64,000 bases of DNA from Candidatus Sungiibacteriota bacterium (GCA_016201505.1 JACQCQ010000013.1:80830-144829); one strand, 5' to 3'. Shown: positions 1,382 through 59,432, counted from the stretch's first letter. The notes: generated by a model from the letters alone, not told the origin. Translations and numbers: made by a program.

Positions 1382-1419
1382 ACTAGTACATTTTATCCGA
1401 TCGGATAAAATGTACTAGT
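1382..1419. promoter_or_regulatory. 38-bp perfect palindrome ACTAGTACATTTTATCCGA|TCGGATAAAATGTACTAGT (operator type 1, copy a). It abuts the stop codon of the regulator gene.
   Basis: Perfect 19+19 inverted repeat. Related copies occur at 1978-2015 and 17034-17071. Confidence 0.6.
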
Positions 1420-1976
1420 TATCTATGAATACCAAACTTATACAATAAATACTTTTCTGAAGTAACTGAATCAGCCACAATATAATGCACGTATTTTCCG
1501 ATTTGGAAGGATTCTGCAATAAAATCTATCTCATCTTTACATTCATATGGCCAAACCCAAAGACTTTTTTGCAGCTGTACGCAGCCAAGATCAATCAGTT
1601 TATGGCGCAACGCATCCCTGCCTCTTCTCAATTGTTCAGGAATATCAAACGCAATCATCCTCCATTTGCCATCCCACATCGGAAAGGTGGGCAATACGAT
1701 CGATTCAAGGTTGTAAATGAGAGCTTTCCTTTTACCTTCTTCGGTCAGGGTAATCCTTGTTTTTCCGCCGATCTCTTTATATTCAATATATTTCTTGCGT
1801 CGTAAATAGTTAATCGTCCAAATAAATTTTTCTCGTTCCTGCTTTTGTTTTATTTCTTTACGGAGCGCAGAGAGCAATTTGCTTGAAAAATTTTTGTTCC
1901 CCAAAGCAAGATAGAAAGCTCCCGCATTCAATAAAAGTTTTAGGAGCTGGCTCGTATACCCATGGTGATTCCTCAT
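1419..1976 (-). CDS. Small transcriptional regulator with an N-terminal winged-helix and a C-terminal Cas2/PaaX_C-like domain (PaaX-family-like). The true start is probably the internal Met of ORF 1419..2267.
   Basis: The C-terminus MIAFDIPEQLRRGRDALRHKLIDLGCVQLQKSLWV resembles the Cas2/PaaX C-domain pattern (I/V)xFD(I/V)...RR..L...L...G.R.Q.S(V/L)(F/W). A wH-like segment KKYIEYKEIGGKTRITLTEEGKRKAL is also present. The longer ORF would overlap gap and read through the palindrome. Confidence 0.55.
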   Translation of the reverse strand: MRNHHGYTSQLLKLLLNAGAFYLALGNKNFSSKLLSALRKEIKQKQEREKFIWTINYLRRKKYIEYKEIGGKTRITLTEEGKRKALIYNLESIVLPTFPMWDGKWRMIAFDIPEQLRRGRDALRHKLIDLGCVQLQKSLWVWPYECKDEIDFIAESFQIGKYVHYIVADSVTSEKYLLYKFGIHR

Positions 1977-14565: not shown

Positions 14566-15633
14566 TCACAGGAAATAATGACGCACATCATGGAAACTGA
14601 TAAATAAAACCAAAATAAGAATCAAGATGATGCCTGCGGTGTGCGCCAGTTGCTCATGCCGCATATGGACCGGGCGGCCGCGAATCTTTTCCGTAAGCAA
14701 GAATAAAATCCTGCCCCCATCCAGTCCGGGAAACGGGATGACGTTTAGTACCGCAAGACTAACGGAGAGCGCGGCCACAAATTGAATAAAATAAACAAAC
14801 CCGAGCTTGGCAAATTGATTGGTTAAGACGAAAACGCCGATTGGGCCCGAAACACTTTCGGGAATGCGCCCCTCGATGACACCGGACTTAAAAATAGAAC
14901 CAAAGGCTTCAAGCGTTGCGCGAAGCGCATACCAAAGACTTTTCGCCCCATACCAGGGGGCTTTATACCAGGCAACTTTATATATCCCGACGTCAGCCAG
15001 CGCGATACCGAGCGGCCCCTCTCCCGCCGGAGGATTTTTTCGTGCTTCAACATCAACGACCTGCGTGTCCGATCCGTTTTGGATGGTAATATGCAACGTT
15101 TCGCCTTTATGCCGGTTTACAAAAAAAACCAGATCATCGGCACTCTTCGGCACCAAACTTTCATTGGTGGCAACTAGTTTCTCGACGATGCTCCCGAAAC
15201 TAATTTTGGCCTTCGCGGCTGGACCATCTGAAGCGACATCGGTGATCGTTACCTTTTGATTGACCGTATCACTATCTCCGACAGATGGAACACCGATGCC
15301 AAAGCCAATCGAAAATAAAACCCAGGCCAAAACCAGGTTCATGAAAACGCCGGCCAAAATAATAACCACCCGATGCCAAATGGGATGCGAGGCAAAGCTT
15401 TTTTTATTATCCGCCCCTTCGCCTGATTCACCGAATAATCTAACAAACCCGCCGAGTGGAACGAGATTTAAGGAATAGATTGTCTCGCCCACTTTTTTAG
15501 CCAAAATCCGCGGCGGAAATCCAAAGCCAAACTCGTCAACGCGAATGCCGAAACTCCGCGCCGCAAAAAAATGTCCCCACTCGTGAACAAGGACAATGAC
15601 TACAAGAACAGCGATAAAGATAATGACGGACAT
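14566..15633 (-). CDS. rseP: Site-2 protease, M50 zinc metalloprotease.
   Basis: HEWGHF (HExxH) in the first TM helix; PDZ-like middle region; multi-TM architecture. Confidence 0.85.
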   Translation of the reverse strand: MSVIIFIAVLVVIVLVHEWGHFFAARSFGIRVDEFGFGFPPRILAKKVGETIYSLNLVPLGGFVRLFGESGEGADNKKSFASHPIWHRVVIILAGVFMNLVLAWVLFSIGFGIGVPSVGDSDTVNQKVTITDVASDGPAAKAKISFGSIVEKLVATNESLVPKSADDLVFFVNRHKGETLHITIQNGSDTQVVDVEARKNPPAGEGPLGIALADVGIYKVAWYKAPWYGAKSLWYALRATLEAFGSIFKSGVIEGRIPESVSGPIGVFVLTNQFAKLGFVYFIQFVAALSVSLAVLNVIPFPGLDGGRILFLLTEKIRGRPVHMRHEQLAHTAGIILILILVLFISFHDVRHYFL

Positions 15634-15686
15634 ACAATCAAAGTACATTATTCTAACTTATCAAACCATAGCGTTGCATCATCGAT

Positions 15687-15718
15687 AAAAGTTCGATAGA
15701 CTAGTCTATCGAACTTTT
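15687..15718. promoter_or_regulatory. Operator type 2, copy a: AAAAGTTCGATAGACT|AGTCTATCGAACTTTT, 32-bp perfect palindrome between the TrpR-like gene stop and the rseP start.
   Basis: Perfect inverted repeat sharing the core GTTCGATAGACTAGTCTATCGAAC with copies at 16149, 20417, 29422 and 35243. Confidence 0.6.
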
Positions 15719-15804
15719 TCACATTGCGGCTAACGAGCGCTTCCATCTTTTAAAACTTGCGGGCGAGCCTTTTACGGGTAGATCGAGCAACGCGATTACT
15801 TTCT

Positions 15805-16143
15805 CTAATGTTCCCATGAAACCTTTGAATTTTTCTGATTTTTGTGGATCAGAATAATTTTTGCATAGCCTCCCGCCGAACGTACTAGCTCCCTTTCGAC
15901 TGAATACACGGTGCTCTTACTTATTTTAAGAATTCTACAAATCGCAATCACATCAAATCCTTGTTCGATGAAAAACGCAACCATAAAACGTTTTGCGAGC
16001 ATCACTTTCTCGCTCCGCGTGAAGAATTCAGAAAGAAACAACGAGGCGTCGACTTCTCGAAGCTTCCCTAAGGCTCTAAACAGCGAGGAGATTATTTCCT
16101 GTTCGAATTCTTTTGAAATTTTATTCTGTGATACTCTCGGCAT
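15805..16143 (-). CDS. TrpR-related YerC/YecD-family small DNA-binding protein.
   Basis: 112 aa. The segment EKVMLAKRFMVAFFIEQGFDVIAICRILKISKSTVYSVERELVRSAGGY matches the YerC/YecD Trp-repressor-like HTH pattern. Confidence 0.75.
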   Translation of the reverse strand: MPRVSQNKISKEFEQEIISSLFRALGKLREVDASLFLSEFFTRSEKVMLAKRFMVAFFIEQGFDVIAICRILKISKSTVYSVERELVRSAGGYAKIILIHKNQKNSKVSWEH

Positions 16144-16148
16144 AGTAT

Positions 16149-16180
16149 ATTAGTTCGATAGACTAGTCTATCGAACTAAT
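16149..16180. promoter_or_regulatory. Operator type 2, copy b: ATTAGTTCGATAGACT|AGTCTATCGAACTAAT, 32-bp perfect palindrome 5 nt upstream of the TrpR-like start codon and overlapping the tlyA stop.
   Basis: Perfect palindrome with the same 24-bp core as 15687-15718. Confidence 0.6.
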
Positions 16181-17033: not shown

Positions 17034-17071
17034 CTAGTACCTTTTATCCGATCGGATAAAAGGTACTAGCT
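17034..17071. promoter_or_regulatory. Operator type 1, copy c: ACTAGTACCTTTTATCCGA|TCGGATAAAAGGTACTAGC, in the frr-tlyA intergenic region.
   Basis: Near-perfect 38-bp palindrome with the same core TTTTATCCGATCGGATAAAA as copies at 1382 and 1978. Confidence 0.55.
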
Positions 17072-18942: not shown

Positions 18943-19856
18943 GCGTGTAGGTTCATGACTATGATATCAGTTGCGAGGCGCGCATTCACGTTGGTGGTTT
19001 CCAGTGTCTCCAGCGCCCGCAAAGCTTTTGAAATATTTTTAGACTTGGATGCGTTCCCCGTTATCATGAACGATTCCCCAAGACGAAACAGATGCTCCAA
19101 AAGAATTTCGCGATCTGCGGCAGCTTGATAGTTGCCGGCGGTGGCCAGTGCCTCTGAAACCGTTGATTGGGAGATGCGCCACGCATCGCGATAGATTCCC
19201 TGCTCGTGTTTTTTTTGCGCGTCATCTAGGGTCATGGAAATCAAAACGCCCGGCAGGCCGCGAGATACTTGAATGAGCTCGGCAGTCGCGCCAGGTATTC
19301 TTTTTAATTCACCCGCGGCGGGGCAAGAAAATCGCATTGGGACAAGCCGCGAAAGAATAGTCGGCATGACATACTCCGGCTTTGACGAAATGAAAATAAA
19401 AAGCGTTTTTTCATTTGGCTCTTCTAATGTTTTTAAAAATGAATTTGCCGCATCGGGTGATAAGAGCTCCGCTGCCTCGACAATGACGATCTGCCAATCT
19501 TTTGAGGCAAGAGCGATGCGACGCCTTATGGCTTCAACTTCTTCGATGCTGATTTTGCTGCGGCGCTTCATCTCATCTTCGGCAATTGGCAGAAAGGGTG
19601 AGGCGAGCGAAAGCACTATCAAATTCGGATGCGTTTCCGACTTCATTCTTTGGCAGGCCTGACAAACACCGCAGCCGCCGATTTTCTTTGACTGGTTTTC
19701 GCAAAGCAGCATCGCCGCACAGCCTTTGGCAACGGTTAATTTACCGACGTCTTTTGGCCCATAAAAAAAGTAGCCGTGAGCCAGTCTCGAGTTTCGGCAG
19801 GCTTTCGTCAAATACTGAATCTCTTTTGCGTGCCCCAAAATCATCTCCTTATTCAT
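18939..19856 (-). CDS. holB: DNA polymerase III delta-prime subunit. The ORF is open up to 20192, but the conserved HolB N-terminus starts at the internal Met.
   Basis: MNKEMILGHAKEIQYL..HGYFFYGPKDVGK (degenerate Walker A typical of delta-prime), Cys cluster CGVCQACQ, and SRLV motif (ILSRLVP). Confidence 0.75.
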   Translation of the reverse strand: MNKEMILGHAKEIQYLTKACRNSRLAHGYFFYGPKDVGKLTVAKGCAAMLLCENQSKKIGGCGVCQACQRMKSETHPNLIVLSLASPFLPIAEDEMKRRSKISIEEVEAIRRRIALASKDWQIVIVEAAELLSPDAANSFLKTLEEPNEKTLFIFISSKPEYVMPTILSRLVPMRFSCPAAGELKRIPGATAELIQVSRGLPGVLISMTLDDAQKKHEQGIYRDAWRISQSTVSEALATAGNYQAAADREILLEHLFRLGESFMITGNASKSKNISKALRALETLETTNVNARLATDIIVMNLHA

Positions 19857-20215
19857 GCCACATAATTCGGAATTAATACATAACCAGGCGATTTTTTCGC
19901 TTTTGTGGATAAGATCGCCGAGGTCAGCACGAAAAATAGAATATACTATATATAGGATTACGTTCGAGATGAATTCATGTTCTTTCGGGCTGGAGTGTCC
20001 GGTCCATCCGTTGAAGAAAGAAGTCTTTCTTTGCACCAATTCATTTCTGTAGACGGCTAGCTCTTTTGTCAATTCATTCGTCCCTTTCCCTGTTGGAGAT
20101 TTTATTCTCCCTCTCGGGCGGGATCCTCGAAGGAGGATCCGACTATTCAGCGCTTCTCGCGGTGACCTCTCTTTTTTACGCGATTGAGGCAAAACATCTG
20201 AATGTGTTGGGCCTC

Positions 20216-20320
20216 CTTTTTCTTTGGCGCGAAAAGCTCCACGGCCGCATCAGGCGCGGCCGTGGCATCTCGCTTTTTCGCTTTGGGCGAAACTCTTGTG
20301 AGATCGGCGGAATCGCACCT
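20216..20320. ncRNA. Candidate structured RNA / conserved element, copy 1 of 2 (the other at 47398-47490), upstream of holB.
   Basis: Stems: CCACGGCCGC/GCGGCCGTGG, TTCGC/GCGAA, ATCTCGC/GTGAGAT. The same three stems with altered loops recur at 47398-47490. Confidence 0.35.
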
Positions 20321-20416
20321 GGCATATAATCTTTGACATGGCAGAGAATATACCAGCTGTTTCCGCATTCATCCACAGGCTTACGCCCACGGCTTTCTGT
20401 GATGGTAGGTAAACAC

Positions 20417-20448
20417 TATAAGTACGATAGACTAGTCTATCGTACTTA
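20417..20448. promoter_or_regulatory. Operator type 2, copy c: ATAAGTACGATAGACT|AGTCTATCGTACTTAT, with a symmetric T-to-A variant in both half-sites. It lies upstream of holB.
   Basis: 32-bp perfect palindrome; the half-site change is mirrored, preserving dyad symmetry. Confidence 0.55.
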
Positions 20449-20545
20449 TGCGTATGCAATCTAAGGTTCACAAAACACCCGACATCTGCCAACTGGCGGA
20501 TGTCGGGTCGATCTTTGCATTACTACACCTACGTACTCTCACCGT

Positions 20546-23337: not shown

Positions 23338-24558
23338 TTAGAATGCGGAAGTTCCAAGCGGCGTGCCAAGGCCGGTTGGCCCGTCGTAGCCGGTAAGAGC
23401 GGTGCAAAGATAAGTGCCTGCGCAGCTGCCATTGGAGCCGGAGGTAATGTCGTGCATATTCGCTGAATTGCCGAGTGCATACGGCAGCGAGGCGGGAGAA
23501 GAGGAACCAACCGTTCCCTGAAGCCCATAGACGGCGGCAATCAGCGGACTCGACAAACTTGTCCCGCCGACCTTAAACCAGCCTGACTTGCCCTGATACC
23601 GAACACTGTCATACACCGCTGCTCCCGTGTTGGGGTCTGCCACTGCCGAGACATCGGCAATGGCCCGATGAGTACACGACGCATCGCTTTGCCAGGTTGG
23701 TTTTGATTCATACTGACTGCACCCCGACCCACTGCCTGACCAGGCAGTCTCGCTGTTATAGGAGTTATCTGAATTTAAGAATAACGTCGTCCCGCCAACG
23801 GCGACAACGTATTGAGAGGCGGCCGGATACTCCACGCCGTAGCCTGCGTCTCCCGAACTGAAGGTGAATACAATTCCAGAATGATTGAAGTGCGCGTCGT
23901 AGCCAGTCTCACCAGAAAATTCCGCCGAGCCGTATGAATTCGAGACTTCGTTGGCGCCGAGCGTTACCGCGCGATCCACCGCGGCCATTAAATTGGCATA
24001 TGAATTTGAGCTGGCTTCGACAAGCAGGATGCCGCAGTTTTGGCACATAGCGTGAGCTACTTCAACGTCGAGCGAAATCTCAAGCGCCCAACCGGAATTG
24101 ACCGAAGGATAATTAAATGTCTGACCAAATTGATTTACTTTTTGAAAGCAGGGGGAAGCCGAGGCGGCAATTGGTCCGGCACACTGAGGCAACACCGGAA
24201 TGGCGTAGGTTTTACTGTAGGTGGCGAGATCCGAATAAATATTCGGGTCATCATACGCGTCCACGATGGCAATAATATTTTTTGTAGCAGAAGTTGTGGG
24301 AACACTATAGGCCACGTGAAATTGGGTCGGTCCAAATCCGTTTGGCAACGATGTCGTTTTCGGCGTCGATCGATCAGATTCGGTGATCACGCGCACATGA
24401 CAGCGGACATCGCCATCCCTCGGATGACAGACTGCGATGTGCGGCTCATGAAGAAGCTTACTGTCATCTCTTTCATTATCAGTTTTGGCGACCGCCACCG
24501 CCGCCACAAGCAACGTAGCCGCAATGACACTAAAAAAGACTTTATCGGGATAGTTCAT
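23338..24558 (-). CDS. Secreted S53 (sedolisin-type) serine-carboxyl peptidase (S8/S53 superfamily).
   Basis: Signal/TM N-terminus. Sedolisin triad context: E-x-S-L-D-V-E (EISLDVE), SSGDAG, and GGTSLSSP. Confidence 0.75.
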   Translation of the reverse strand: MNYPDKVFFSVIAATLLVAAVAVAKTDNERDDSKLLHEPHIAVCHPRDGDVRCHVRVITESDRSTPKTTSLPNGFGPTQFHVAYSVPTTSATKNIIAIVDAYDDPNIYSDLATYSKTYAIPVLPQCAGPIAASASPCFQKVNQFGQTFNYPSVNSGWALEISLDVEVAHAMCQNCGILLVEASSNSYANLMAAVDRAVTLGANEVSNSYGSAEFSGETGYDAHFNHSGIVFTFSSGDAGYGVEYPAASQYVVAVGGTTLFLNSDNSYNSETAWSGSGSGCSQYESKPTWQSDASCTHRAIADVSAVADPNTGAAVYDSVRYQGKSGWFKVGGTSLSSPLIAAVYGLQGTVGSSSPASLPYALGNSANMHDITSGSNGSCAGTYLCTALTGYDGPTGLGTPLGTSAF

Positions 24559-24699
24559 AACCTCGTAGGCATCATACCAGACCTTGTGTCATATTTCAAA
24601 CACCGACCTCTGCAAAACTAAGACCATTCTGCCGTCGGGCGGTTTTCGTTTTATGAAAACCATGGGGGAGAAATTATGATACTCCGAGCTGTACTCATT

Positions 24700-24752
24700 T
24701 CCTGCGATCGCAGGAAATGAGTACAGCGAATCAAAAGCCGCGCGATGCGCGG
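24700..24752. terminator. Tandem hairpins: a 20+20-bp perfect palindrome followed by a GC hairpin with a T-run.
   Basis: GCTGTACTCATTTCCTGCGA|TCGCAGGAAATGAGTACAGC followed by AAAAGCCGCGCGATGCGCGGCTTTT. Confidence 0.5.
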
Positions 24753-25075
24753 CTTTTGTGTTGCTCAAAAAATTTCCCGCCTTCTCCGCCAGCTGGCAGA
24801 TACGGAAGGGCGCAGCAACTGTTTTATCCCTGAATGAATTCCAACTGTTCCGACTTTGGTCTTCCGAAGCTCCGTGAGGAGCGCAGGAGACCGCGCTGTA
24901 ATGTCCCCATTACAACGACTAGTCTCGGTGTATCGTGTTTCAGCCGTCCGAAGCTCTTGCGAGCGTAGGAGACTTCCGAGACCAAACACGTCTTTGGCTC
25001 GCCGTAGCTCCGTGAGGAGCGTAGACGGCTTTCATTCTCCAGGATGAGATAAGGAGGCGAGGCGCTTGCAGTACT

Positions 25076-26412
25076 TCTAAACGCACCTCGCATAAGGATC
25101 AGGCTTTCGCCTGCTAGATTTCGATCTCGGGCAATCTCCACGCCGCAGGCAAGGTGCACCTCGCCAAAAGCACGTCTCCGCTGCAGCGGAGCAAGACGAC
25201 CCGAGCTCTGTTATCCCGAACATCGGTACGATTTTTTTTTGCGATGCAGATACCGAGGTAGCGGAGGAAGCAGACGCCCAGTAGAGGATCGGGCGAAGGC
25301 ACTACCTACTAGCTAACCCGATCATACGTGATGTCCACCCCCGCGCTTCTCATCACCTTGTCCAGTGATACTCCGCAAGCGCCACGGGATTTCCTGCATC
25401 GCAAACTGAATTTCTATTTTTCCTTATCTCATCCTGGAGTTTTCGCCGCGCCAAAATTTTTATAAATAAAAACTTAGGCGGGCGTCCGACCTTCTAGGAT
25501 CACTGTTCAATCAGTTTGCTAGTTTTCTAGTTGACTAGTTAACTAGTAGGTCGCTAAGCGACCGGAACTGATGAACTGACAGATTCCTAAAAAGAATATG
25601 TTCCATCGACAGCTTCCGCTACCGATGCCTTGTTCATGTTCTCCCTATGTCGCCATAAGGCATGGACTATATCATCACCCTTTGTTGCAATGTCTTGATT
25701 TTTCTCGGATGCCAACTTCCGATAATCTTCAAGAAGTTTTCTTGAGATTTTTTCGAAATAAACATTCGGAAATAATCTGGATCTATGTGGAAACTTGGAT
25801 TATGGATTTTCCCCGATTGGATTCCAAAACTTATCAGCATTTGTTTAAGTTTCTCCAGTTTGATGCGATCATTCTGCACCAGTTGAATGTAAAACCTTGC
25901 GGATGGACTTCTTGGAATTCCTCCCTCGGCATCAAAGAATCCTCTTAAATACGCTATTTTTTCCTCAGCTGAATTTAACCGCTTAGGATCGAATTTTGTA
26001 TCTAAGAATTTTGCTCTTGTTTCCAATACATACACTTTACGATTTCTGCCTTCGCGATATATCCAGGAGGTATTATCCGTTAGCGCTAGGCAAGATTTTA
26101 GTACTGATAACCAATCAGTACCTAGCTGCGCAAACCGGTGTCTTTGGTTATACCGATTGAAGGTGCCATCGTGAAGCGCACCGAGTAAGTATGCTCGGCA
26201 TTCTGCAACAGAAGGGGCTTGGCGTGTAGTCTCTGAGGCGCCTCCGACGTTACGTCGGAGTTGCCTGCTGATTGTCTGCGCTTTTCGCATTATCACTTCT
26301 AGAACTATTTTAGCTCTATAAGTAGCAAAAAGATACTCAGGTTTTCCAGCATATAGCCAAGTTTTTATGTGAGAATTACTCCTCACAAGTCGCAACGGAC
26401 GCAGTCTGCGCC
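25076..26412 (-). mobile_element. About 1.3-kb intron-like insertion near the 16S 3' end (E. coli position about 1506-1520) encoding a LAGLIDADG homing endonuclease.
   Basis: 16S exon sequence (positions about 1400-1505) occupies 26396-26497 and the terminal about 22 nt occupy 25051-25072. The intervening 1.3 kb has no 16S similarity and carries the LAGLIDADG ORF. Confidence 0.6.
25667..26395 (-). CDS. Double-motif LAGLIDADG homing endonuclease (intron-encoded). The track ORF begins with a TTG; the start is uncertain.
   Basis: Two LAGLIDADG-like motifs: LLGALHDGTF and YLRGFFDAEGGI. Length 242 aa. Confidence 0.8.
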   Translation of the reverse strand: MRLVRSNSHIKTWLYAGKPEYLFATYRAKIVLEVIMRKAQTISRQLRRNVGGASETTRQAPSVAECRAYLLGALHDGTFNRYNQRHRFAQLGTDWLSVLKSCLALTDNTSWIYREGRNRKVYVLETRAKFLDTKFDPKRLNSAEEKIAYLRGFFDAEGGIPRSPSARFYIQLVQNDRIKLEKLKQMLISFGIQSGKIHNPSFHIDPDYFRMFISKKSQENFLKIIGSWHPRKIKTLQQRVMI

Positions 26413-26497
26413 TACGACTTCGTCTTTGTCACCGATCCTACCGTGGGCCACCATAAGTGGACTTCGGGTATTACCAGCTCCCCTGACGTGACGGGCG

Positions 26498-27232
26498 GTA
26501 TTAAGATCACTTCTGTGTCTTACACCACTGGGCGAACGGTTTTCCCGTACCCTAGCGGTTTCTTATATCGCTTTCGCGATATAGATTCGTCCCTTCCCGA
26601 GCACATATTTTTGGAGTCTATTGACGAAATTTATCAATAGGTATATAAATTGTATACGAGGAGGTGAAGGATTATGTTGGGTATCGCGGTTCCACCGATC
26701 CCTGCAAACGCGGGTGTCAGTAGCGATCCGGAAGGACTGCTCGCGCTCCTTCTTCTGATGTTCGTCGTTGTTCCGTCAATCATCGTCATTTTCGGCGGCG
26801 CGATCATGGCGAACGTCGAAGACTGAGATCAGCGGACGGCTTTCACCCCCCACAGCGGCCTCCAGGAGGTCGCTTTCAATTTCTCCAAAAATATGTGCTC
26901 GGTACTATGGATTCTGCTGACTTCTCAATAAGCATCAAGATAAAATTGCTTTTATCCTTTACCTTTCGGACTTAATAAGATCTCCTTCGGTCACCGAATA
27001 TACCATTCTCTCACATCTCGATACTCCGTATATAGCGTAAAATTTGTGCAGATGACTTCTCCATGTACTCGAAGGATCGTCGATCTACGCTACCTATTAG
27101 CGAGTATTCAAGCTATAAGACATATACTTTCGCCCTTCATCCTGAGGATCACTCCTCGAAGGACTGCGATTTCATTTCGCGACTTCTGCAAATCGTGGTG
27201 GGATTTAAACCCACTGGCATACTCGGCTGCAA
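26498..27232 (-). other. About 735-nt insertion in 16S at the conserved 1400 region, between GACGGGCGGT and TGTACAAG.
   Basis: Universal 1392 primer-site sequence is split: ...GACGGGCGGT at 26485-26494 and ...GTACAAAGCTCGAGAACGTATTCACC at 27235-27262. Confidence 0.6.
26674..26826 (+). CDS. Candidate 50-aa hydrophobic peptide with a strong Shine-Dalgarno, encoded inside the 16S insertion (antisense to the rRNA).
   Basis: AGGAGGTG is 5 nt upstream of the ATG. Translation MLGIAVPPIPANAGVSSDPEGLLALLLLMFVVVPSIIVIFGGAIMANVED has one predicted TM helix. Confidence 0.3.
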   Translation: MLGIAVPPIPANAGVSSDPEGLLALLLLMFVVVPSIIVIFGGAIMANVED

Positions 27233-27708
27233 AGCACCCGAGTACAAAGCTCGAGAACGTATTCACCGCGGCATAGCTGATCCGCGATTACTAGCGATTC
27301 CATCTTCAAGGAGTCGAGTTGCAGACTCCTATCTGAACTGGGGCGCACTTTGATGGGATTAGCTCCGCCTTGCGGCTTGGCAACCCATTGTATGCGCCAT
27401 TGTAGCACGTGTGTAGCCCAGGGTATCAGAGGGCCATGCTGACCTCGCGTCATCCCCTCCTTCCTCTCCCGAAAAGGAAGCAGTCTCTCCTGACACATAT
27501 AACAGAAGACAAGGGTTGCGTTCGTTAACCCACTTAAGGGAACAGTTCAAACCACGAACTGACGAGGGCCATGCAGCACCTGTGATTGCCGTCTTGTGAA
27601 CACACCGCGGTTTCTCGCGGTTTTTGCAATCATTTCAAACCCTGGTGAGGTTCCTCGGTTGTCATCGAATTGAACCACATGCTCCACCGCTTGTGCGAGC
27701 TCCCGTCT

Positions 27709-27740
<32 letters not shown>

Positions 27741-27838
27741 TCCCAGGCGGCAGATTTAACGCGTTAGCTGCGCCACTCCGAGGGTCGATACTCGAAATAG
27801 CTAATCTGCATCGTTTAGGGCGTGGACTACTGGGGTAT

Positions 27839-28920
27839 CTACAATTTTGTTGCGACAAAATTGGAATTTCTAAATCCGAATTTCTAATTTCTAAACAAAT
27901 CCGAAATCTCAAATTTCCAAATTGCGGACGAGACATTTCTGCTCGTCTCTCCGTATCGCTACGGAGATCGGACTGTATCATGACGGAAAGTATTACTGGC
28001 GCGGGTTTCGCTTTCGCTCACCCGCGCCGGGACTTCCGCCCTCGGCGTGCAGTCTCTGAGGGTTACGAAAGAGAGATCGGCGCTGTTTCTACATGCCGAT
28101 GGCCGAAACCGGGCCCGTCGAGGCTATCTCCGTAGCTTTCCTTGACGATGCGCTCGACGCGTACCACATTACCCATATCTTGAGCGATGGCGCGAGCTAC
28201 ATTGTCACCTTGAGCTTCGAACTCTACGACTGCCCAATATTTCATAGCTTCTCCTTTTCGTCCTTCCCTGCTGGTTGTCCGTTGACCGATCCGCGTTTAG
28301 CGGATACAGGTCGCACCGGATGCTTTTTTACCACTACTTTACATCGAACTTGCTGACTTCCTTCCGCATTCCTTCAAGGACCCTGCGAATCTCCGGCGAA
28401 TTGCCGTACTTCGCGAGGTACTTGTCGATCAGCTCGAGAAACCCGTTCTGCATGGCCTCGCGGGCCATTTGAGTGAACAAGCTCATTGTTTTTTTCCTTT
28501 CTGTGGTAGCACCGGATACACCGGATGTTCCAGCATATAGCTCCGCCGTCGCCTCACGGCTATGGCGGATCCCAACTTCACCATCATATTTTTCAATGGT
28601 GCGTCGGGACAAGTTTTCCAGGCAGTAGAAATTCGACTCGCTTCACAGCTGGCCGCAGAGAGGCCGGTCGAATTTCTACTGCCTGGTTTTTCCTTTTGAC
28701 GCGTTACTTCGCGTCCTAAGGGGACCATGCTCACGGTACCCCTACCGCCTCACTCTCGTTCGCTGTATCAACAGCGCCCTCAAGCGAGTCACATGTATGC
28801 ACAGAGAAATTTTTTCGAAACTCAAGGGAGGGATCCCGTCGTCGGAACGACAAATCCCTATGGGGAGAGTTGTAACATGCTCCTCCCTTGGTGATGAAAA
28901 AATTTCTCTGTGCAAAACAT
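27839..28920 (-). other. About 1.1-kb insertion in 16S after the 785-805 site. It contains small ORFs (28063..28245 and 28334..28612, minus strand) and a hairpin repeat element.
   Basis: 16S blocks on either side are contiguous in normal 16S (GGACTACTGGGGTATCTA at 27820-27838 and CCCATTCGCTCCCCACGCTTTCG at about 28925). The intervening sequence has no rRNA similarity. Confidence 0.55.
28613..28686. repeat. Hairpin element with 21-bp perfect terminal inverted repeats CCAGGCAGTAGAAATTCGAC...GTCGAATTTCTACTGCCTGG (family member 1).
   Basis: Perfect inverted repeat with a 28-nt interior. The terminal repeats match the element at 29205-29332. Confidence 0.6.
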
Positions 28921-29204
28921 GCGCGAGCGCTTTCGATCCCATTCGCTCCCCACGCTTTCGTCTGTGAACGTCAGGACAAGGCCAGCAACATGCCTTCGCC
29001 TTTGGTATTCCCTATGATATCAACGGATTTCACCCCTACACCATAAGTTCTAGTTGCCTCTCCTTGCCTCTAGTCGTGCCGTTTCGAATGCGGCCTACGA
29101 GTTAAGCCCGTAGATTTAACACCCGACTAACACGACCGTCTGGAGACCCTTTACGCCCAATAAATCCGGATAACGCTTGAAGCCTTCGTATTACCGCGGC
29201 TGCT

Positions 29205-29332
29205 GGCCAGGTAGTAGAAGTTCGACTGCGCGCGAGCGCAAATTATTTTCGAACATTTAATTTTCAGAGCCATGACAGATAGTGCTCCCAACTACAGAAA
29301 TCTTCATTTCATAGTCGAACTTTCACTACCTG
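29205..29332. repeat. 128-bp hairpin intervening element inserted in the 16S 530-loop region. Terminal repeats CCAGGTAGTAGAAGTTCGACTG / CAGTCGAACTTTCACTACCTGG. Family member 2 (IVS/MITE-like).
   Basis: The insertion splits the universally conserved GCTGCTGGCAC (519 site) into GCTGCTGGC | element | CTGGCAC, with a CTGGC direct repeat. The 22-bp terminal inverted repeats are near-identical to those of the 28613 element. Confidence 0.65.
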
Positions 29333-29344
29333 GCTGGCACGAAA

Positions 29345-29995
29345 TTCTACCGCCAATTTGGACTATATCATCACCCCGATGTTCATCGGGGGTCCCGCGT
29401 GTAGTCTCTGAGGGCTCTCTGCTATAAGTTCGATAGACTAGTCTATCGAACTTATAGAAACAGGTTGCCTGCTGATTGTTTCGTTGCGCGTCTTTGCAGT
29501 TTGCAAAACATTTCCGCGGACACAACGAAGTGTTCCAGTCCCGCAAGCCTCCCCACCGCAATACACTGATGTATTGTAGTGGCATGACTCACAGGATTCC
29601 CGAATCCATCTTTTCTTACGGCCAATAGGGCCGCGGGATTGCGATTTGTAACTACTCCGCCTTCGCTAAAAGCTTCGGCGGACAAGTCGTTACACTCGCA
29701 GACAAATCGGGAACATATAGCGAGATTTTCTTATGACGTATTACTACGCCAACTTCGCACCAAGTTTTTCTAACTTCACGAAGTTTGCAGCTTCTTATTC
29801 ATCTGGTACGGTCAGTCGTGCCTCGCTCTAGCGAACCACTCTCAATTTTAAATTTCCAATTTCTAATTTTCAATGAATGTCCTAATGTCTCAATTTCCAA
29901 AGGTTTGGGGTATTGAATCATTAAGAATTGACTGAAAATTGCAAAATTGATCATTGCAAATTGTGTGCCTCACAAAAGTGAGACACGACTTCTTC
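29345..29995 (-). other. About 540 extra nt in the 16S region between E. coli positions about 400 and 515. It contains the operator type 2 palindrome and sequence blocks shared with the LAGLIDADG intron.
   Basis: Blocks GCGTGTAGTCTCTGAGGG (29396-29413) and GTTGCCTGCTGATTGT (29464-29479) also occur at 26222-26238 and 26261-26276 within the LAGLIDADG ORF region. Conserved 16S resumes near 29995 (CTTTACAGACCGAAGTCCTTCTTCCTGCACGCGGCG). Confidence 0.5.
29422..29457. promoter_or_regulatory. Operator type 2, copy d: CTATAAGTTCGATAGACT|AGTCTATCGAACTTATAG, 36-bp perfect palindrome, located inside the 16S insertion.
   Basis: Identical 36/36 to the copy at 35243-35278. Confidence 0.55.
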
Positions 29996-30237
29996 CCAGA
30001 TAAAAGCAGTTTACAGACCGAAGTCCTTCTTCCTGCACGCGGCGTCGCTCGATCAGGCTTTCGCCCATTGTCGAATATTCTCGACTGCAGCCACCCGTAG
30101 GTGTATGAACCGTATCTCAGTTTCATCGTTGGGGATCACGCTCTCACGCCCCCTACCCGTCATAGCCAAGGTGCGCCATTACCACACCTTCTAGCTGATA
30201 GGACCAAGGCTCCTCCCCGAGCGCTCTTGCGAGCTTT

Positions 30238-30296
30238 ACCCCGCCTAAATTTTTGAGCTTTTTCATACTTTCAAAAAGCTCAAAAATTTAGGCGGG
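30238..30296. repeat. 25-bp perfect-stem hairpin expansion in the 16S V1-V2 region.
   Basis: CCCCGCCTAAATTTTTGAGCTTTTT-catactttc-AAAAAGCTCAAAAATTTAGGCGGGG. Confidence 0.5.
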
Positions 30297-30624
30297 GACC
30301 ATTGAGTATTAGCCAATCTTTCGGCTGGTTATTCTCATCTCGGGGGTAGATTCCAAGGTATTACTGAACTCGTTCGCCGCTAACTGGCAAATTGCGCGTA
30401 GCTAATGGAAAATAGTATTGCTACTATAAGCCATCCGCCAATTGCTATAAGCCAATTCGCACGACTTGCATGCCCTATCCACGCCGCCAGCGTTCATCCT
30501 GGACCAGGATCAAATCCTCTAATAGATCAGTTAGTTTTTCAGTTTACTAGTTGCCTAGTTCACATATTGCTAACTGCCGAGAACAAGAGGAAGAAAGAAA
30601 CGAATTTTTAGAAAACTCGCGAAA

Positions 30625-31776: not shown

Positions 31777-31806
31777 ATCCCGTTAGAAACTTTTTCTAAT
31801 CGGGAT
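31777..31806. repeat. Short hairpin ATCCCGTTAGAAACTTTTTCTAATCGGGAT, a minimal member of the CCCGTTAGA inverted-repeat family.
   Basis: Inverted repeat CCCGTTAGAA / TTCTAA(T)CGGG. Confidence 0.5.
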
Positions 31807-31830
31807 TGTGCTACACCCATTATTTTTATT

Positions 31831-31858
31831 CACTCCAATACTTTAAAGTATTGGAGTG
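31831..31858. promoter_or_regulatory. Operator type 3, solo copy: CACTCCAATACTTT|AAAGTATTGGAGTG, 28-bp perfect palindrome.
   Basis: Identical to the palindrome at 36548-36575 flanking the second TrpR-like gene. Confidence 0.55.
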
Positions 31859-31876
31859 CTTCAATAATGGTGTATT

Positions 31877-31905
31877 TGTCCCGTTAGAAACTTTTCCTAA
31901 CGGGA
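31877..31905. repeat. Short hairpin GTCCCGTTAGAAACTTTTCCTAACGGGAT (CCCGTTAGA family).
   Basis: Inverted repeat CCCGTTAG / CTAACGGG with a 10-nt loop. Confidence 0.5.
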
Positions 31906-32175
31906 TCTATTCAATTATTAAAATACTGTCCAAGCAGACACCACGAATTTATACAAACTGTTTTCGGCAAACACGCACAAACATTTCGTATCCTTTCGTT
32001 AACAATCTTGTAACGATTCGTGGTTTATTCTTACAAAACAGAACCACGCAAATTCCCATAAAGAAACTTGCGCGGTTCTGCCTGCATTGTGTCCCCCAAT
32101 TGACTCGAGGGTTTTGACTTGTTCCCGGCCCCAACGATTCCGATAGACCGAGTATTTTGATAGGCGAAACAGCTA

Positions 32176-32242
32176 CATCCCGTTTAGAAGTAAGAAACTG
32201 ATGTTTCTGCTACTTTCAGAGAAAGAGGACTTCTAACGGGAT
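32176..32242. mobile_element. MITE-like element (67 bp) with ATCCCGTTTAGAAG / CTTCTAACGGGAT terminal inverted repeats.
   Basis: Terminal inverted repeats share the CCCGTTAGA core with the elements at 32309, 35068, 58294 and 59674. Confidence 0.5.
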
Positions 32243-32308
32243 ACATTTAACCTATCTGACAACCAAGTTAAGGTAAGTAAAAGTATAAGCCTCTATAAGA
32301 AATTGTCA

Positions 32309-32473
32309 ATCCCGTTAGAAGCCGCGACTACGAAAGATAGAACTAAAATGATTATTTTTATTGAATCTAGACTAATCTGACACAAACACGTTTGATCGCG
32401 ATCCTACCTGCGCTCCGTCGGCCATAGCCTTTGGCGACGTGCGACCGGCAGGCAGGTCTGCTTCTAACGGGAT
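32309..32473. mobile_element. MITE-like element (165 bp). Its left terminal repeat ATCCCGTTAGAAGCCGCGA and right terminal repeat TCTGCTTCTAACGGGAT match the two ends of the 59674-59780 element in reverse orientation.
   Basis: 14-17-bp terminal inverted repeats. The internal GTTTGATCGCGATC block is shared with the 59674 element. It lies just downstream of the ROK kinase stop codon. Confidence 0.6.
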
Positions 32474-35242: not shown

Positions 35243-35278
35243 CTATAAGTTCGATAGACTAGTCTATCGAACTTATAG
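35243..35278. promoter_or_regulatory. Operator type 2, copy e (36-bp perfect palindrome) upstream of the membrane GH gene.
   Basis: CTATAAGTTCGATAGACTAGTCTATCGAACTTATAG, identical to 29422-29457. Confidence 0.55.
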
Positions 35279-36547: not shown

Positions 36548-36575
36548 CACTCCAATACTTTAAAGTATTGGAGTG
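36548..36575. promoter_or_regulatory. Operator type 3, copy a: CACTCCAATACTTTAAAGTATTGGAGTG. It abuts the stop of the TrpR-like gene and lies 10 nt upstream of the GH1 start.
   Basis: 28-bp perfect palindrome. Confidence 0.6.
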
Positions 36576-36986
36576 CTATACTTTCACCATGTTCCATCGA
36601 CCCCTTGGATCTGATTTTCTCGGTAAGCTCATAAAGAGTTTTTCAATAGTTTCAAACGTATTCTTGAAATTTTTGCTCCTCTCAAGATTTTTTATAAACA
36701 TCCTGAATCCCCTTCCATCGCGCTGAAGTTTTTCACTAATCGTGCCTATGGTAGTTTGGCTAACTTTTAAAATTCGTTCTATCTGCTGATAGGAGTAATC
36801 CTCTTCGAGCAAAAGCGCTATTAAGATTCTTTTTCCGAGCATTGCTTTTTCAGTAGTAGTCAATAAATCATCAAAGAACAATTTCAACGAGCCTCTATCC
36901 CGCAAAATTAAGGTGGCTTCGACGATTCTGCTTGACAGATCATCTATATGGCCTGGCGTTAATTTATAACGTGATAGATGCGGCAT
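36576..36986 (-). CDS. TrpR-related YerC/YecD-family small DNA-binding protein (second paralogue).
   Basis: 136 aa. FFDDLLTTTEKAMLGKRILIALLLEEDYSYQQIERILKVSQTTIGTISEKL closely follows the YerC/YecD consensus (FFDDL.T..E...L..R...A..L.EG.SY..I.......S..TIS). Confidence 0.75.
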   Translation of the reverse strand: MPHLSRYKLTPGHIDDLSSRIVEATLILRDRGSLKLFFDDLLTTTEKAMLGKRILIALLLEEDYSYQQIERILKVSQTTIGTISEKLQRDGRGFRMFIKNLERSKNFKNTFETIEKLFMSLPRKSDPRGRWNMVKV

Positions 36987-36992
36987 GGCTGT

Positions 36993-37020
36993 ACTCTAAT
37001 ACTTTAAAGTATTGGAGTAA
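36993..37020. promoter_or_regulatory. Operator type 3, copy b: TACTCTAATACTTTAAAGTATTGGAGTA (1 mismatch), 6 nt upstream of the TrpR-like start codon.
   Basis: Near-perfect palindrome with the same core as 36548-36575. Confidence 0.55.
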
Positions 37021-45505: not shown

Positions 45506-45541
45506 GAAAACCAAAAATCGGCCGCGGCCGATTTTTGGTTT
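45506..45541. terminator. Bidirectional terminator between the convergent CARDB gene and rnc.
   Basis: CCAAAAATCGGCCGCGGCCGATTTTTGG hairpin with flanking A/T runs. Confidence 0.65.
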
Positions 45542-50735: not shown

Positions 50736-50763
50736 GGTCATCCGATAACATGAAAAGTCCTAA

Positions 50764-50808
50764 AAAACATTCTCAAGTTCTTAAGAACTTGAGAATGTTT
50801 TTTAGGTT
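50764..50808. terminator. Bidirectional rho-independent terminator: 30-bp perfect palindrome flanked by A6 and T6.
   Basis: AAAAAACATTCTCAAGTTCTTAAGAACTTGAGAATGTTTTTT between convergent genes. Confidence 0.7.
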
Positions 50809-54438: not shown

Positions 54439-54897
54439 CTAAATTTTCTGCCAGCCGATGACGGGATGAAGTTCCCACCAGTTATGAAAGGTATCAAACC
54501 GGACAATGCCCCAGATTTTGATGCGATCGCCGGCTGTGGGTAGCGGCAAGTTTTTAATTTCAGGAATAAATTCAGTAACAAGCAACGACTCGTCCGGTGC
54601 CTTGATTACGACATGAAAGTCTCCGTCGGGTTGCGGGGCGATGATATTGACGACGCCCTCGACTGTAACTTTTGTCTTCTTGCTGCCGTGCGTAATGAAG
54701 GTGGCAAGATCAGTATCGTAATAGAGCAGGTCATCATCCTCCGTTTCACCTTGCTGGACAGAATAAGAAAGGGTTCGTTCTACAATTTTGGGAATTAAAG
54801 CCCGTGGATTTAATGTTTGGGATCGAATATAAAAACCAAACCCGATGCCCGCGCCCAAGACAACCAGAAACTTTACCGCCCAAAGCCATCGCGTCAT
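54439..54897 (-). CDS. Membrane-anchored hypothetical protein (152 aa).
   Basis: N-terminal TM helix, then a soluble beta-rich domain. Flanked by degenerate copies of the 50771 terminator palindrome. Confidence 0.5.
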   Translation of the reverse strand: MTRWLWAVKFLVVLGAGIGFGFYIRSQTLNPRALIPKIVERTLSYSVQQGETEDDDLLYYDTDLATFITHGSKKTKVTVEGVVNIIAPQPDGDFHVVIKAPDESLLVTEFIPEIKNLPLPTAGDRIKIWGIVRFDTFHNWWELHPVIGWQKI

Positions 54898-59042: not shown

Positions 59043-59432
59043 TTATGTCGGTGAGGCCGCTGATTTTCTGCCGGAGCCCATCGTCTTTCGCACATTGCCG
59101 CGGCGCGTTCGTGAATTCGTTTTTGTCCGCTGGCCGTTGACTGGCAGGCCGCGCATATGGCGCAGGCCGCGATAGGTTGAGATGTCTTTAAGTCTTTTAA
59201 TGTTCATCATAATCTCGCGGCGCAAATCTCCTTCAATTTTGTAACTCTTTTCAATTGCGTCTCGCAGCCGCCCGATTTCATCTTGCGTGAGGCTATCACT
59301 CTTTTTACTCGGGCTCACATTGGCAACTTTTAAAACCTGCTTGGCGTTTGTGGCACCAATGCCATAAATATATCTCAAAGCGACATCAACTCTTTTTTTA
59401 TCTGGAATGGCAATACCCGCAATGCGAACCAT
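59043..59432 (-). CDS. rpsM: 30S ribosomal protein S13.
   Basis: MVRIAGIAIPDKKRVDVALRYIYGIG...YRGLRHMRGLPVNGQRT: the S13 signature. Confidence 0.9.
   Translation of the reverse strand: MVRIAGIAIPDKKRVDVALRYIYGIGATNAKQVLKVANVSPSKKSDSLTQDEIGRLRDAIEKSYKIEGDLRREIMMNIKRLKDISTYRGLRHMRGLPVNGQRTKTNSRTRRGNVRKTMGSGRKSAASPT

Follow-up and report, generated by a model that had tools for sequence, protein, structure and literature searches.

The gene for the lambda CI repressor lies between the operator regions OL and OR, and bound repressors pair, forming a DNA loop that tightens autoregulation. Transposase genes of the REP/RAYT type (repetitive extragenic palindromes and their associated tyrosine transposases) are flanked by cognate short palindromes, further copies of which are scattered in intergenic DNA. 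The TrpR-fold regulator HisR/YerC binds 20–base pair (bp) palindromes with an N6 center, is autoregulated in about half of genomes, and has the operator consensus cacTTTA-N6-TAAAgtg upstream of histidine genes (PMC9413887). Here, we describe a TrpR/YerC-like regulator gene bracketed by long perfect palindromes in a 64,000-nucleotide (nt) stretch of DNA from Candidatus Sungiibacteriota bacterium (GCA_016201505.1, JACQCQ010000013.1:80830-144829), which we refer to as the window. The window belongs to a candidate-phyla (Patescibacteria) genome, has a G+C content of 49%, and carries nearly all of its genes on the minus strand. The local gene order is holB, BNR-repeat protein, frr, TlyA, regulator, and RseP-type M50 protease. 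We estimate a probability of about 0.72 that the palindrome serves the adjacent TrpR/YerC-family repressor as its cognate operator.

A 24-bp core, GTTCGATAGACT-AGTCTATCGAAC (that is, GTTCGATAGACTAGTCTATCGAAC), occurs without mismatches at positions 15691, 16153, 29428, and 35249. A fifth match, at 20422, has two mismatches, which mirror each other across the arms (GTACG...CGTAC; T>A/A>T at core position 3). These five matches compare with none in 100 dinucleotide-preserving shuffles. With their flanks, the five copies (A1 to A5; Table 1) are perfect palindromes of 32 to 36 bp, and the identity between A4 and A5 extends over 40 nt, including four nonpalindromic flanking bases. A preliminary description of the window had reported these palindromes, the flanking of the regulator gene on both sides, and the identical 36-mers at A4 and A5, all of which we confirm; it had also recognized the mirrored variant A3, with coordinates (20417-20448) that were off by one. 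None of the five copies lies within a protein-coding gene (P ~3e-4, given a crude coding fraction of 0.80). A2 covers the TlyA stop codon (16176-16178) and is separated by 5 nt from the regulator ATG (16143). The first RseP ATG (15648) follows A1 by 39 nt and a second (15633) by 54 nt; RseP homologs begin to align at the latter. Searches for an 18-mer of the core elsewhere returned two chance matches, in unrelated phyla, among representative genomes and none among viral contigs. A phage or plasmid origin was rejected.

The bracketing of the regulator gene is a property of the family. A scan of metagenome contigs with a six-sequence alignment as the query yielded 19 loci with homologs that are 30 to 49% identical, and exact-protein look-ups added seven further loci from Levyibacteriota, Azambacteria, Blackburnbacteria, and unclassified Patescibacteria. 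We compared brackets at 24 loci (~20 distinct) and at a second, paralogous regulator within the window. At all 24 loci and at the window paralog, the gene stands between two copies of a palindrome, or shared motif, specific to the locus. The upstream copy lies 0 to 90 nt before the ATG and the downstream copy 0 to 85 nt past the stop codon, which it often touches. In a control set of 516 open reading frames (ORFs) of at least 90 amino acids (aa) from the same DNA, hardly any gene other than these regulators had a k-mer of at least 15 nt common to its upstream and downstream flanks. The order holB-BNR-frr-TlyA-regulator-RseP is kept in 10 related loci; because of this conservation, we regard the gene in these ten loci as vertically inherited rather than as a recently inserted cassette.

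The palindromes change together with the proteins. Relative to the window (CGATAG-ACTAGT-CTATCG), both copies have shifted in concert in relatives, to CAATAG-ACCGGT-CTATTG or CAATAG-ACTAGT-CTATTG, and the half-site consensus across loci is C[A/G]ATAG-N6-CTAT[T/C]G. The 6-bp centers vary (ACTAGT, ACCGGT, TATATA, GCCGTC, GACGTC, ACCAGT, and GATAGT), and some are not self-complementary. A clearly different recognition helix goes with a clearly different palindrome, as seen in the window paralog and at loci L019, L020 and L021, L003, L022 and L029, L024 and L030, and L025. The window paralog, with the recognition helix LKVSQTTIGTIS, has the half-sites CAATAC-N6-GTATTG. It is related to the first regulator (phmmer, 6e-13) and matches the family profile at 4e-42. 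Each of the two window paralogs is thus bracketed by its own type of palindrome, that of the second being family D (Table 1), and the coevolution of sites with paralogous regulators for which the preliminary description had proposed a check is found within the window itself.

Table 1. Coordinates of the palindromes, regulator genes, and associated features in the window.
Feature	Position	Strand	Details
Palindrome A1	15687-15718		32 bp; AAAA-core-TTTT; putative downstream operator copy
Palindrome A2	16149-16180		32 bp; ATTA-GTTCGATAGACT-AGTCTATCGAAC-TAAT; putative upstream operator copy
Palindrome A3	20418-20449		32 bp; ATAA..TTAT flanks; solitary; mirrored core variant GTACG..CGTAC
Palindrome A4	29422-29457		36-mer, same as A5; solitary; in 16S intron
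Palindrome A5	35243-35278		36-mer, same as A4; solitary; between GH1 stop and glycoside hydrolase ATG
TrpR/YerC-like regulator, annotated ORF	15805..16143	−	112 aa; six-helix TrpR core
Out-of-frame continuation of the regulator	15719..15916	−	conserved C-terminal tail ending in EKVIALLDLPVKGSPASFKRWKRSLAAM and stop; from hmmsearch and three-frame translation
RseP-type M50 site-2 protease	14566..15648	−	Pfam Peptidase_M50, 2e-53; directly downstream of the bracket; candidate target
Group I–like intron in 16S rRNA 530 loop	29207-29777	−	~570 nt; ..CGU/G...intron...G/CCAGCAGCCGCGGUAAUAC
Paralogous TrpR/YerC-like regulator	36576..36986	−	136 aa; intact C-terminal tail
Family D copy, upstream	36992..37019		imperfect; TACTCTAATACTTTAAAGTATTGGAGTA; just upstream of paralog ATG
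Family D copy, downstream	36548..36575		CACTCCAATACTTTAAAGTATTGGAGTG; abuts paralog stop; 10 nt upstream of GH1 ATG (36537)
Family D copy, solitary	31831..31858		noncoding; upstream of a 135-aa gene and the 16S gene

Where a promoter can be recognized, the palindrome mostly coincides with it. Using the criteria of the scanning tool for sigma-70–like promoters within 160 nt upstream of the regulator, we found a promoter at 12 of the 24 regulators, compared with 13% of random windows. The palindrome overlaps or abuts promoter elements at 11 of these 12 loci. The element concerned is the −35 element at L012, L013, L014, and L017; the spacer or −10 element at L004, L020, and L025; the −10 element or start site at L022 and L029; and the stretch just downstream of the −10 element at L031, at the second promoter-like match of that locus. 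L003 has a weak promoter match (9 of 12) inside the palindrome, and L023 is the exception, its palindrome lying ~20 nt downstream of the −10 element. Several −10 boxes end 7 to 10 nt ahead of the ATG, and their proximity suggests leaderless mRNAs. A palindrome that covers the −35 element is not transcribed from that promoter, which argues for a role at the level of DNA. In the window and its closest relatives, the gap between TlyA and the regulator accommodates no consensus promoter.

The regulator itself belongs to the TrpR superfamily as a divergent member whose nearest branch is YerC/HisR. The annotated 112-aa ORF matches Pfam PF01371 (Trp_repressor) at E = 9e-4 (19.7 bits, under the gathering cut-off of 27) and TIGR02531 (YerC/YecD) at 19.5 bits (under the NCBIfam cut-off of 42.2), and a word-indexed protein search with it matched only itself. 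An exhaustive protein search, however, placed it among 554 representative clusters of proteins of 100 to 150 aa with the family motif LLTxTEKxMLAKRL...GY.Y..I...LKVS..TV. TIGR02531 is matched at E < 0.01 by 35 of 40 family members (best E, 4e-13). A family profile built from 40 members matches the solved structures 3FRW (3.7e-14), 3KOR (8e-14), and 3G1C (5e-13), as well as E. coli TrpR (~0.01-0.02; by hhalign, E = 2.8e-5 with a probability of 74%), and it finds 744 database proteins at E < 1e-5. Precomputed annotation assigns PF01371 to all 120 of the relatives listed; the few with names from their sources belong to Patescibacteria, Azambacteria, and Levyibacteriota and go by "Trp family transcriptional regulator" or "YerC/YecD." An AlphaFold2 single-chain model (predicted local distance difference test score, 87.6) has six helices, with the helix-turn-helix (HTH) in helices D-E, and the top 29 Foldseek matches in PDB are all TrpR-like, with target-normalized template modeling scores of 0.62 to 0.80. 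We base superfamily membership on profile and fold together, even though the window protein scores below the curated thresholds. The family-invariant residues T42, E45, R52, and T78 align onto T44, E47, R54, and T81 of TrpR in the profile alignment, and the equivalent of R84 is not conserved. An amino acid–like corepressor is therefore possible, given that the equivalents of T44, R54, and T81 are invariant and that of R84 is not.

The preliminary description was right in calling this gene TrpR/YerC-like; the length of 112 aa that it gave needs correcting. The candidate-phyla family carries a conserved C-terminal tail of ~40 aa (LPxKGSxxSxxRW), and the family profile matches a second frame in the window (stop-to-stop 15722..15916, minus strand; hmmsearch E = 7.5e-4). 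The frame switches within GCAAAAATTATTCTGATC, at ~15847-15864. Judged from these frames, the annotated ORF is truncated by a frameshift, which may be a real mutation or a consensus or assembly error of the metagenome-assembled genome. A frame-restored gene would encode a homolog-like protein of ~142 aa, and its TGA stop (15719-15721) would abut A1, the same arrangement as in relatives. The sole independent contig with TlyA (Logan, 912 nt) has its breaks within palindromes A2 and B2.

The downstream copy mostly lies 4 to 80 nt ahead of the start codon of the next gene. This gene encodes RseP in the Sungbacteria-like clade, a PAP2 phosphatase at L004, L013, and L014, BacA at L012, ScpA at L008, RNase H at L019, and GH1 after the window paralog. 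Note that the genes following the closest nonsyntenic homologs, PAP2 at three loci and BacA at one, encode two unrelated kinds of undecaprenyl-pyrophosphate phosphatase. The presence of RseP, PAP2, and BacA beside the closest homologs suggests a regulon with a cell-envelope or undecaprenyl-phosphate theme. At L009 (794-837 and 1617-1652), and also at L010, a variant palindrome, TACCAATAGACC-GGTCTATTGGTA, brackets a gene for a HAD-family hydrolase. It differs from the local operator, GTACAATAGACC-GGTCTATTGTAC, symmetrically in both arms (CCAATAG for ACAATAG) and is presumably the operator of a paralog outside the locus.

We propose that the repressor would act as an intertwined dimer, as in its solved TrpR-fold relatives, each recognition helix reading one C[A/G]ATAG half-site and leaving the 6-bp center unread. 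The copy that touches the start codon would bring about negative autoregulation by occluding the promoter; for the window clade, where no promoter fits after TlyA, the bound protein might instead block read-through from TlyA. Through the copy at the stop codon, the repressor would also control the next gene, here RseP; this copy and the upstream one might in addition come together in a repression loop enclosing the regulator gene. The three solitary copies would bring further transcription units under control, or else may be recent copies that have yet to acquire a function.

One of these solitary copies, A4, lies inside the 16S gene, as the preliminary description had it, and more precisely within a group I–like intron. 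The 16S alignment reveals a 577-nt insertion across which the exon sequence CGU/GCCAGCAGCCGCGGUAAUAC is restored. Rfam RF00028 is matched weakly (26.5 to 27 bits, E ~1e-4; gathering score, 50), with the P, Q, R, and S elements aligned and boundaries compatible with ..U/ and G/. In this alignment, A4 supplies the P6 hairpin that separates Q from R, a position that structurally tolerates an added hairpin. Within the region 25643-30525 (minus strand), the 16S gene is heavily interrupted, with further, smaller insertions (62, 38, and 162 nt) and ~900 nt separating its two Rfam matches (27923-28823). Downstream of it are a bona fide group I intron match (25643-26423, 59.5 bits), overlapping a 242-aa ORF, and a match to group II D1-D4 (26884-26960).

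The other two solitary copies are intergenic. A3 lies just past a terminator-like hairpin that follows a peptidoglycan-binding gene, and its placement "at holB" needs qualifying: the longest holB ORF begins 225 nt downstream of it, and the conserved start is ~570 nt away. An Rfam search between A3 and holB gave nothing credible. The ~570 nt from A3 to the conserved start (19850-20417) contain no recognizable gene or RNA family, and a G+C-rich hairpin is found there at 20239-20265. A5 lies 48 nt past the stop codon (35326) of the preceding GH1 gene and 173 nt upstream of the ATG (35069) of a 609-aa membrane glycoside hydrolase, in whose promoter region the preliminary description had placed it. 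A TATAAT without a good −35 element occurs 11 nt upstream of A5 (minus strand), and no consensus promoter was found there. A promoter at every copy, which the preliminary description had proposed to check, is not supported: A4 is a hairpin of an rRNA intron, and the copies at holB and the glycosidase have no detectable consensus promoter. The 40-nt identity of A4 and A5 suggests recent copying of these two.

The preliminary description derived its operator from mirrored variation, which it took as selection on dyad symmetry. The flanks of the window copies differ yet stay mirror-symmetric (AAAA, ATTA, ATAA, and CTATAA), as do those at L004 (TATTAT and ATTTCTAC). Over all loci, 34.6% of positions that vary between the copies of one locus are symmetric versus a background of 27.3% (p = 0.004), a modest excess; the effect is strong in the window and L004 and is not universal. 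When replication switches templates within a quasi-palindrome, one arm is overwritten with a copy of the other (PMC7202029), and compensatory changes can arise together in one event (PMC8794818). Arm-to-arm template switching is the simplest explanation for the mirrored variation, a better one than selection, and a hairpin or cruciform constraint is an alternative cause. Inferring a dimeric repressor from symmetry is unsound by itself, because base reading by a dimer would keep read positions constant and leave unread positions free, and predicts none that are variable yet symmetric. The operator of a dimeric TrpR/YerC-like repressor is nonetheless well supported, by the comparative evidence.

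Besides these variable yet symmetric positions, several observations weigh against an operator. The consensus promoter scan found nothing at any of the five window copies, and promoter-like sites in the scanned regions around the copies were no more common than in shuffled sequence. The window regulator, being frameshifted, may be inactive, and A4 serves as an intron hairpin. The next gene at L023 is convergent and the downstream copy is kept all the same; control of the next gene is therefore not the whole story, and a loop between the two copies, or a roadblock, may be involved. Four of the five cores are 100% identical over 24 bp, more uniform than the usual sites of a regulon, and this near-uniformity, together with the 40-nt identity of A4 and A5, suggests copying. 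Related loci of ~20 kb mostly hold just the two bracketing copies, and the extra sites of the window are absent at orthologous positions. The same uniformity and absence, the use of a tolerant peripheral intron hairpin by one copy, and the several other long perfect palindrome families of this genome would fit a mobile or self-copying repeat, akin to REPs or miniature inverted-repeat transposable elements, that merely flanks the regulator as REPs flank RAYT genes. We consider such a repeat unlikely. No transposase was noticed beside any copy (not every window ORF was scanned for transposases), and the flanked gene encodes a TrpR-fold protein of ~140 aa without a catalytic domain. The bracket is syntenic in 10 related loci, most 20-kb loci have only two copies, and the arrangement of half-sites around N6 and the overlap with promoters are traits of operators. 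The tracking of recognition helices is likewise left unexplained by a mobile repeat. A variant in which the operator itself gets copied is compatible with the operator reading.

Two further explanations treat the palindromes as RNA structures or as recombination sites. We regard it as highly unlikely that they are RNA hairpins acting as terminators, attenuators, stabilizers, or ribonuclease III sites. The predicted hairpins have energies of −17.5 to −21.8 kcal/mol, the intron copy is certainly transcribed and used as a stem, mirror-symmetric variation fits a pairing constraint, and perfect palindromes do seem to serve as bidirectional terminators between convergent genes in the window (45508-45541 and 50759-50806). 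Such hairpins, however, need neither a shared sequence nor any tracking of the neighboring regulator; a T-run follows A1 only, the U-tract is missing at four of five copies, and a terminator scan lists none of them. Moreover, the palindromes at L012, L013, L014, L017, and L025 overlap the −35 element or spacer, upstream of the predicted start site, and centers are often not self-complementary while half-sites are conserved. A terminator-only reading was rejected. Two copies of a perfect palindrome are direct and inverted repeats at once, so the regulator could also be an excisable or invertible cassette between recombination sites, a reading that we find barely credible. The gene is precisely bracketed and its HTH weakly matches models of resolvase and invertase HTHs, but these matches reflect the shared HTH motif alone. 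There is no recombinase that consistently accompanies the gene, 10 related loci agree in its orientation and synteny, and no empty site was seen; the recombination cassette was rejected.

A more far-reaching version of the operator reading is a long shot. Modules of the form operator-regulator-operator might spread their operators by hairpin-driven template switching or insertion and so rewire regulons. With one copy in P6 of the 16S intron and one of the paralog's copies upstream of the rRNA, a bound repressor might act as a roadblock within the rRNA unit and couple ribosome synthesis to its ligand, while the flanking operators loop out the regulator. Around the latter copy (window 31790-32470), hairpins of the CCCGTTAGAA...TTCTAACGGG type recur on both sides of the family D palindrome. 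One of them abuts the −35 element of the best promoter-like site of the region (32309-32282, minus strand; TTGACA-16-TATACT), and the motif is also found in related genomes (L009, 5100-5130; L011, 312-452).

The window contains other long palindromes. A second family, AACTAGTAC[A/C]TTTTATCCGATCGGATAAAA[T/G]GTACTAGTT, occurs at 1381-1420, 1977-2016, and 17034-17069, the third copy lying between frr and TlyA. It brackets an unrelated PaaX-like regulator gene (~1419-1962, minus strand; Pfam PaaX_M, 3.5e-23), with an imperfect copy shortly before the likely ATG (1962, which GAGGA precedes) and a perfect copy overlapping the stop codon. Among the three copies, arm positions 9-10 vary; both perfect copies carry the change mirrored in their two arms, and the imperfect copy does so at position 9. 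Because this unrelated regulator is bracketed too, the layout may be a general habit of compact, codirectional genomes. A 48-bp perfect palindrome, CCTAAAAAACATTCTCAAGTTCTTAAGAACTTGAGAATGTTTTTTAGG, lies between convergent genes at 50759-50806 and resembles a bidirectional terminator; half-copies of it in inverted orientation (~54420 and ~54950) stand on either side of a 152-aa gene (54439..54897). At 24688-24727 a 40-bp perfect palindrome, GCTGTACTCATTTCCTGCGATCGCAGGAAATGAGTACAGC, occurs once, separated by 4 nt from a terminator-like hairpin (24732-24758); a 406-aa gene (23338..24558) follows 130 nt downstream, and no cognate regulator was seen for this palindrome in the window. On either side of rpsM (S13; 59043-59432) stands a low-complexity, AT-rich sequence of 36 nt (ATCCTAAGCACGAAATCCTAAACTCTAAACAAATTC), repeated in direct orientation.

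Bacteria of the candidate phyla radiation are for the most part uncultivated, and for this reason next to nothing is known of how they regulate their genes. If the members of this widespread family (744 relatives at E < 1e-5) do place their binding site on both sides of their own gene, the operator of each could be read from sequence, and regulons could be predicted from metagenomes and checked with purified protein. Cell-envelope maintenance is a testable function, given that the closest homologs precede RseP, PAP2, and BacA genes. In the mirrored variants there is also a natural case in which to study how long palindromes stay symmetric.

The bracketed regulator is not HisR (YerC/YecD, PF01371/TIGR02531, of Firmicutes), although both have the small six-helix TrpR fold, with 3G1C, 3KOR, and 3FRW the closest solved structures, and two half-sites around a 6-bp center (TTTA-N6-TAAA for HisR). 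The half-site here is C[A/G]ATAG rather than TTTA, the neighbors are TlyA, RseP, PAP2, BacA, and GH1 with no his genes nearby, and the window protein falls under the curated cut-offs of PF01371 and TIGR02531. Perfect symmetry extends here over 32 to 48 bp, and a second operator copy past the stop codon is the rule. E. coli TrpR resembles the window protein in its fold, its HTH geometry, the invariant equivalents of T44, R54, and T81, the GTAC...CTAG flavor of its operator, and the autoregulation of its gene, whereas sequence similarity is very low (E ~0.01-0.02), the R84 equivalent is not conserved, and TrpR has a single operator at its own promoter. Neither HisR nor TrpR has the ~40-aa C-terminal tail of the window family. 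Like lambda cI, the gene sits between two operator regions, which are putative here; the protein family is different, the spacing is ~0.5 kb rather than 2.4 kb, and looping is conjectural here. As with REP/RAYT elements, palindromes bracket a gene and have further copies in noncoding DNA, but the flanked gene encodes a TrpR-fold HTH regulator without an HUH/Y1 catalytic domain, and copies are few in the DNA covered (5 in 64 kb, 2 per ~20 kb in relatives); REP elements have tens to hundreds of dispersed copies per genome. Intrinsic terminators have a G+C-rich stem followed by a U-tract, whereas the stems here have a G+C content of ~40% and a T-run occurs at one copy only. Relative to the literature that we found, three features are new: a second putative operator at the stop codon throughout the family, perfect symmetry over such a length, and the conserved C-terminal tail. 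An autoregulated TrpR-family repressor is a known kind of system, and the two-operator bracket is a variant of it that is new.

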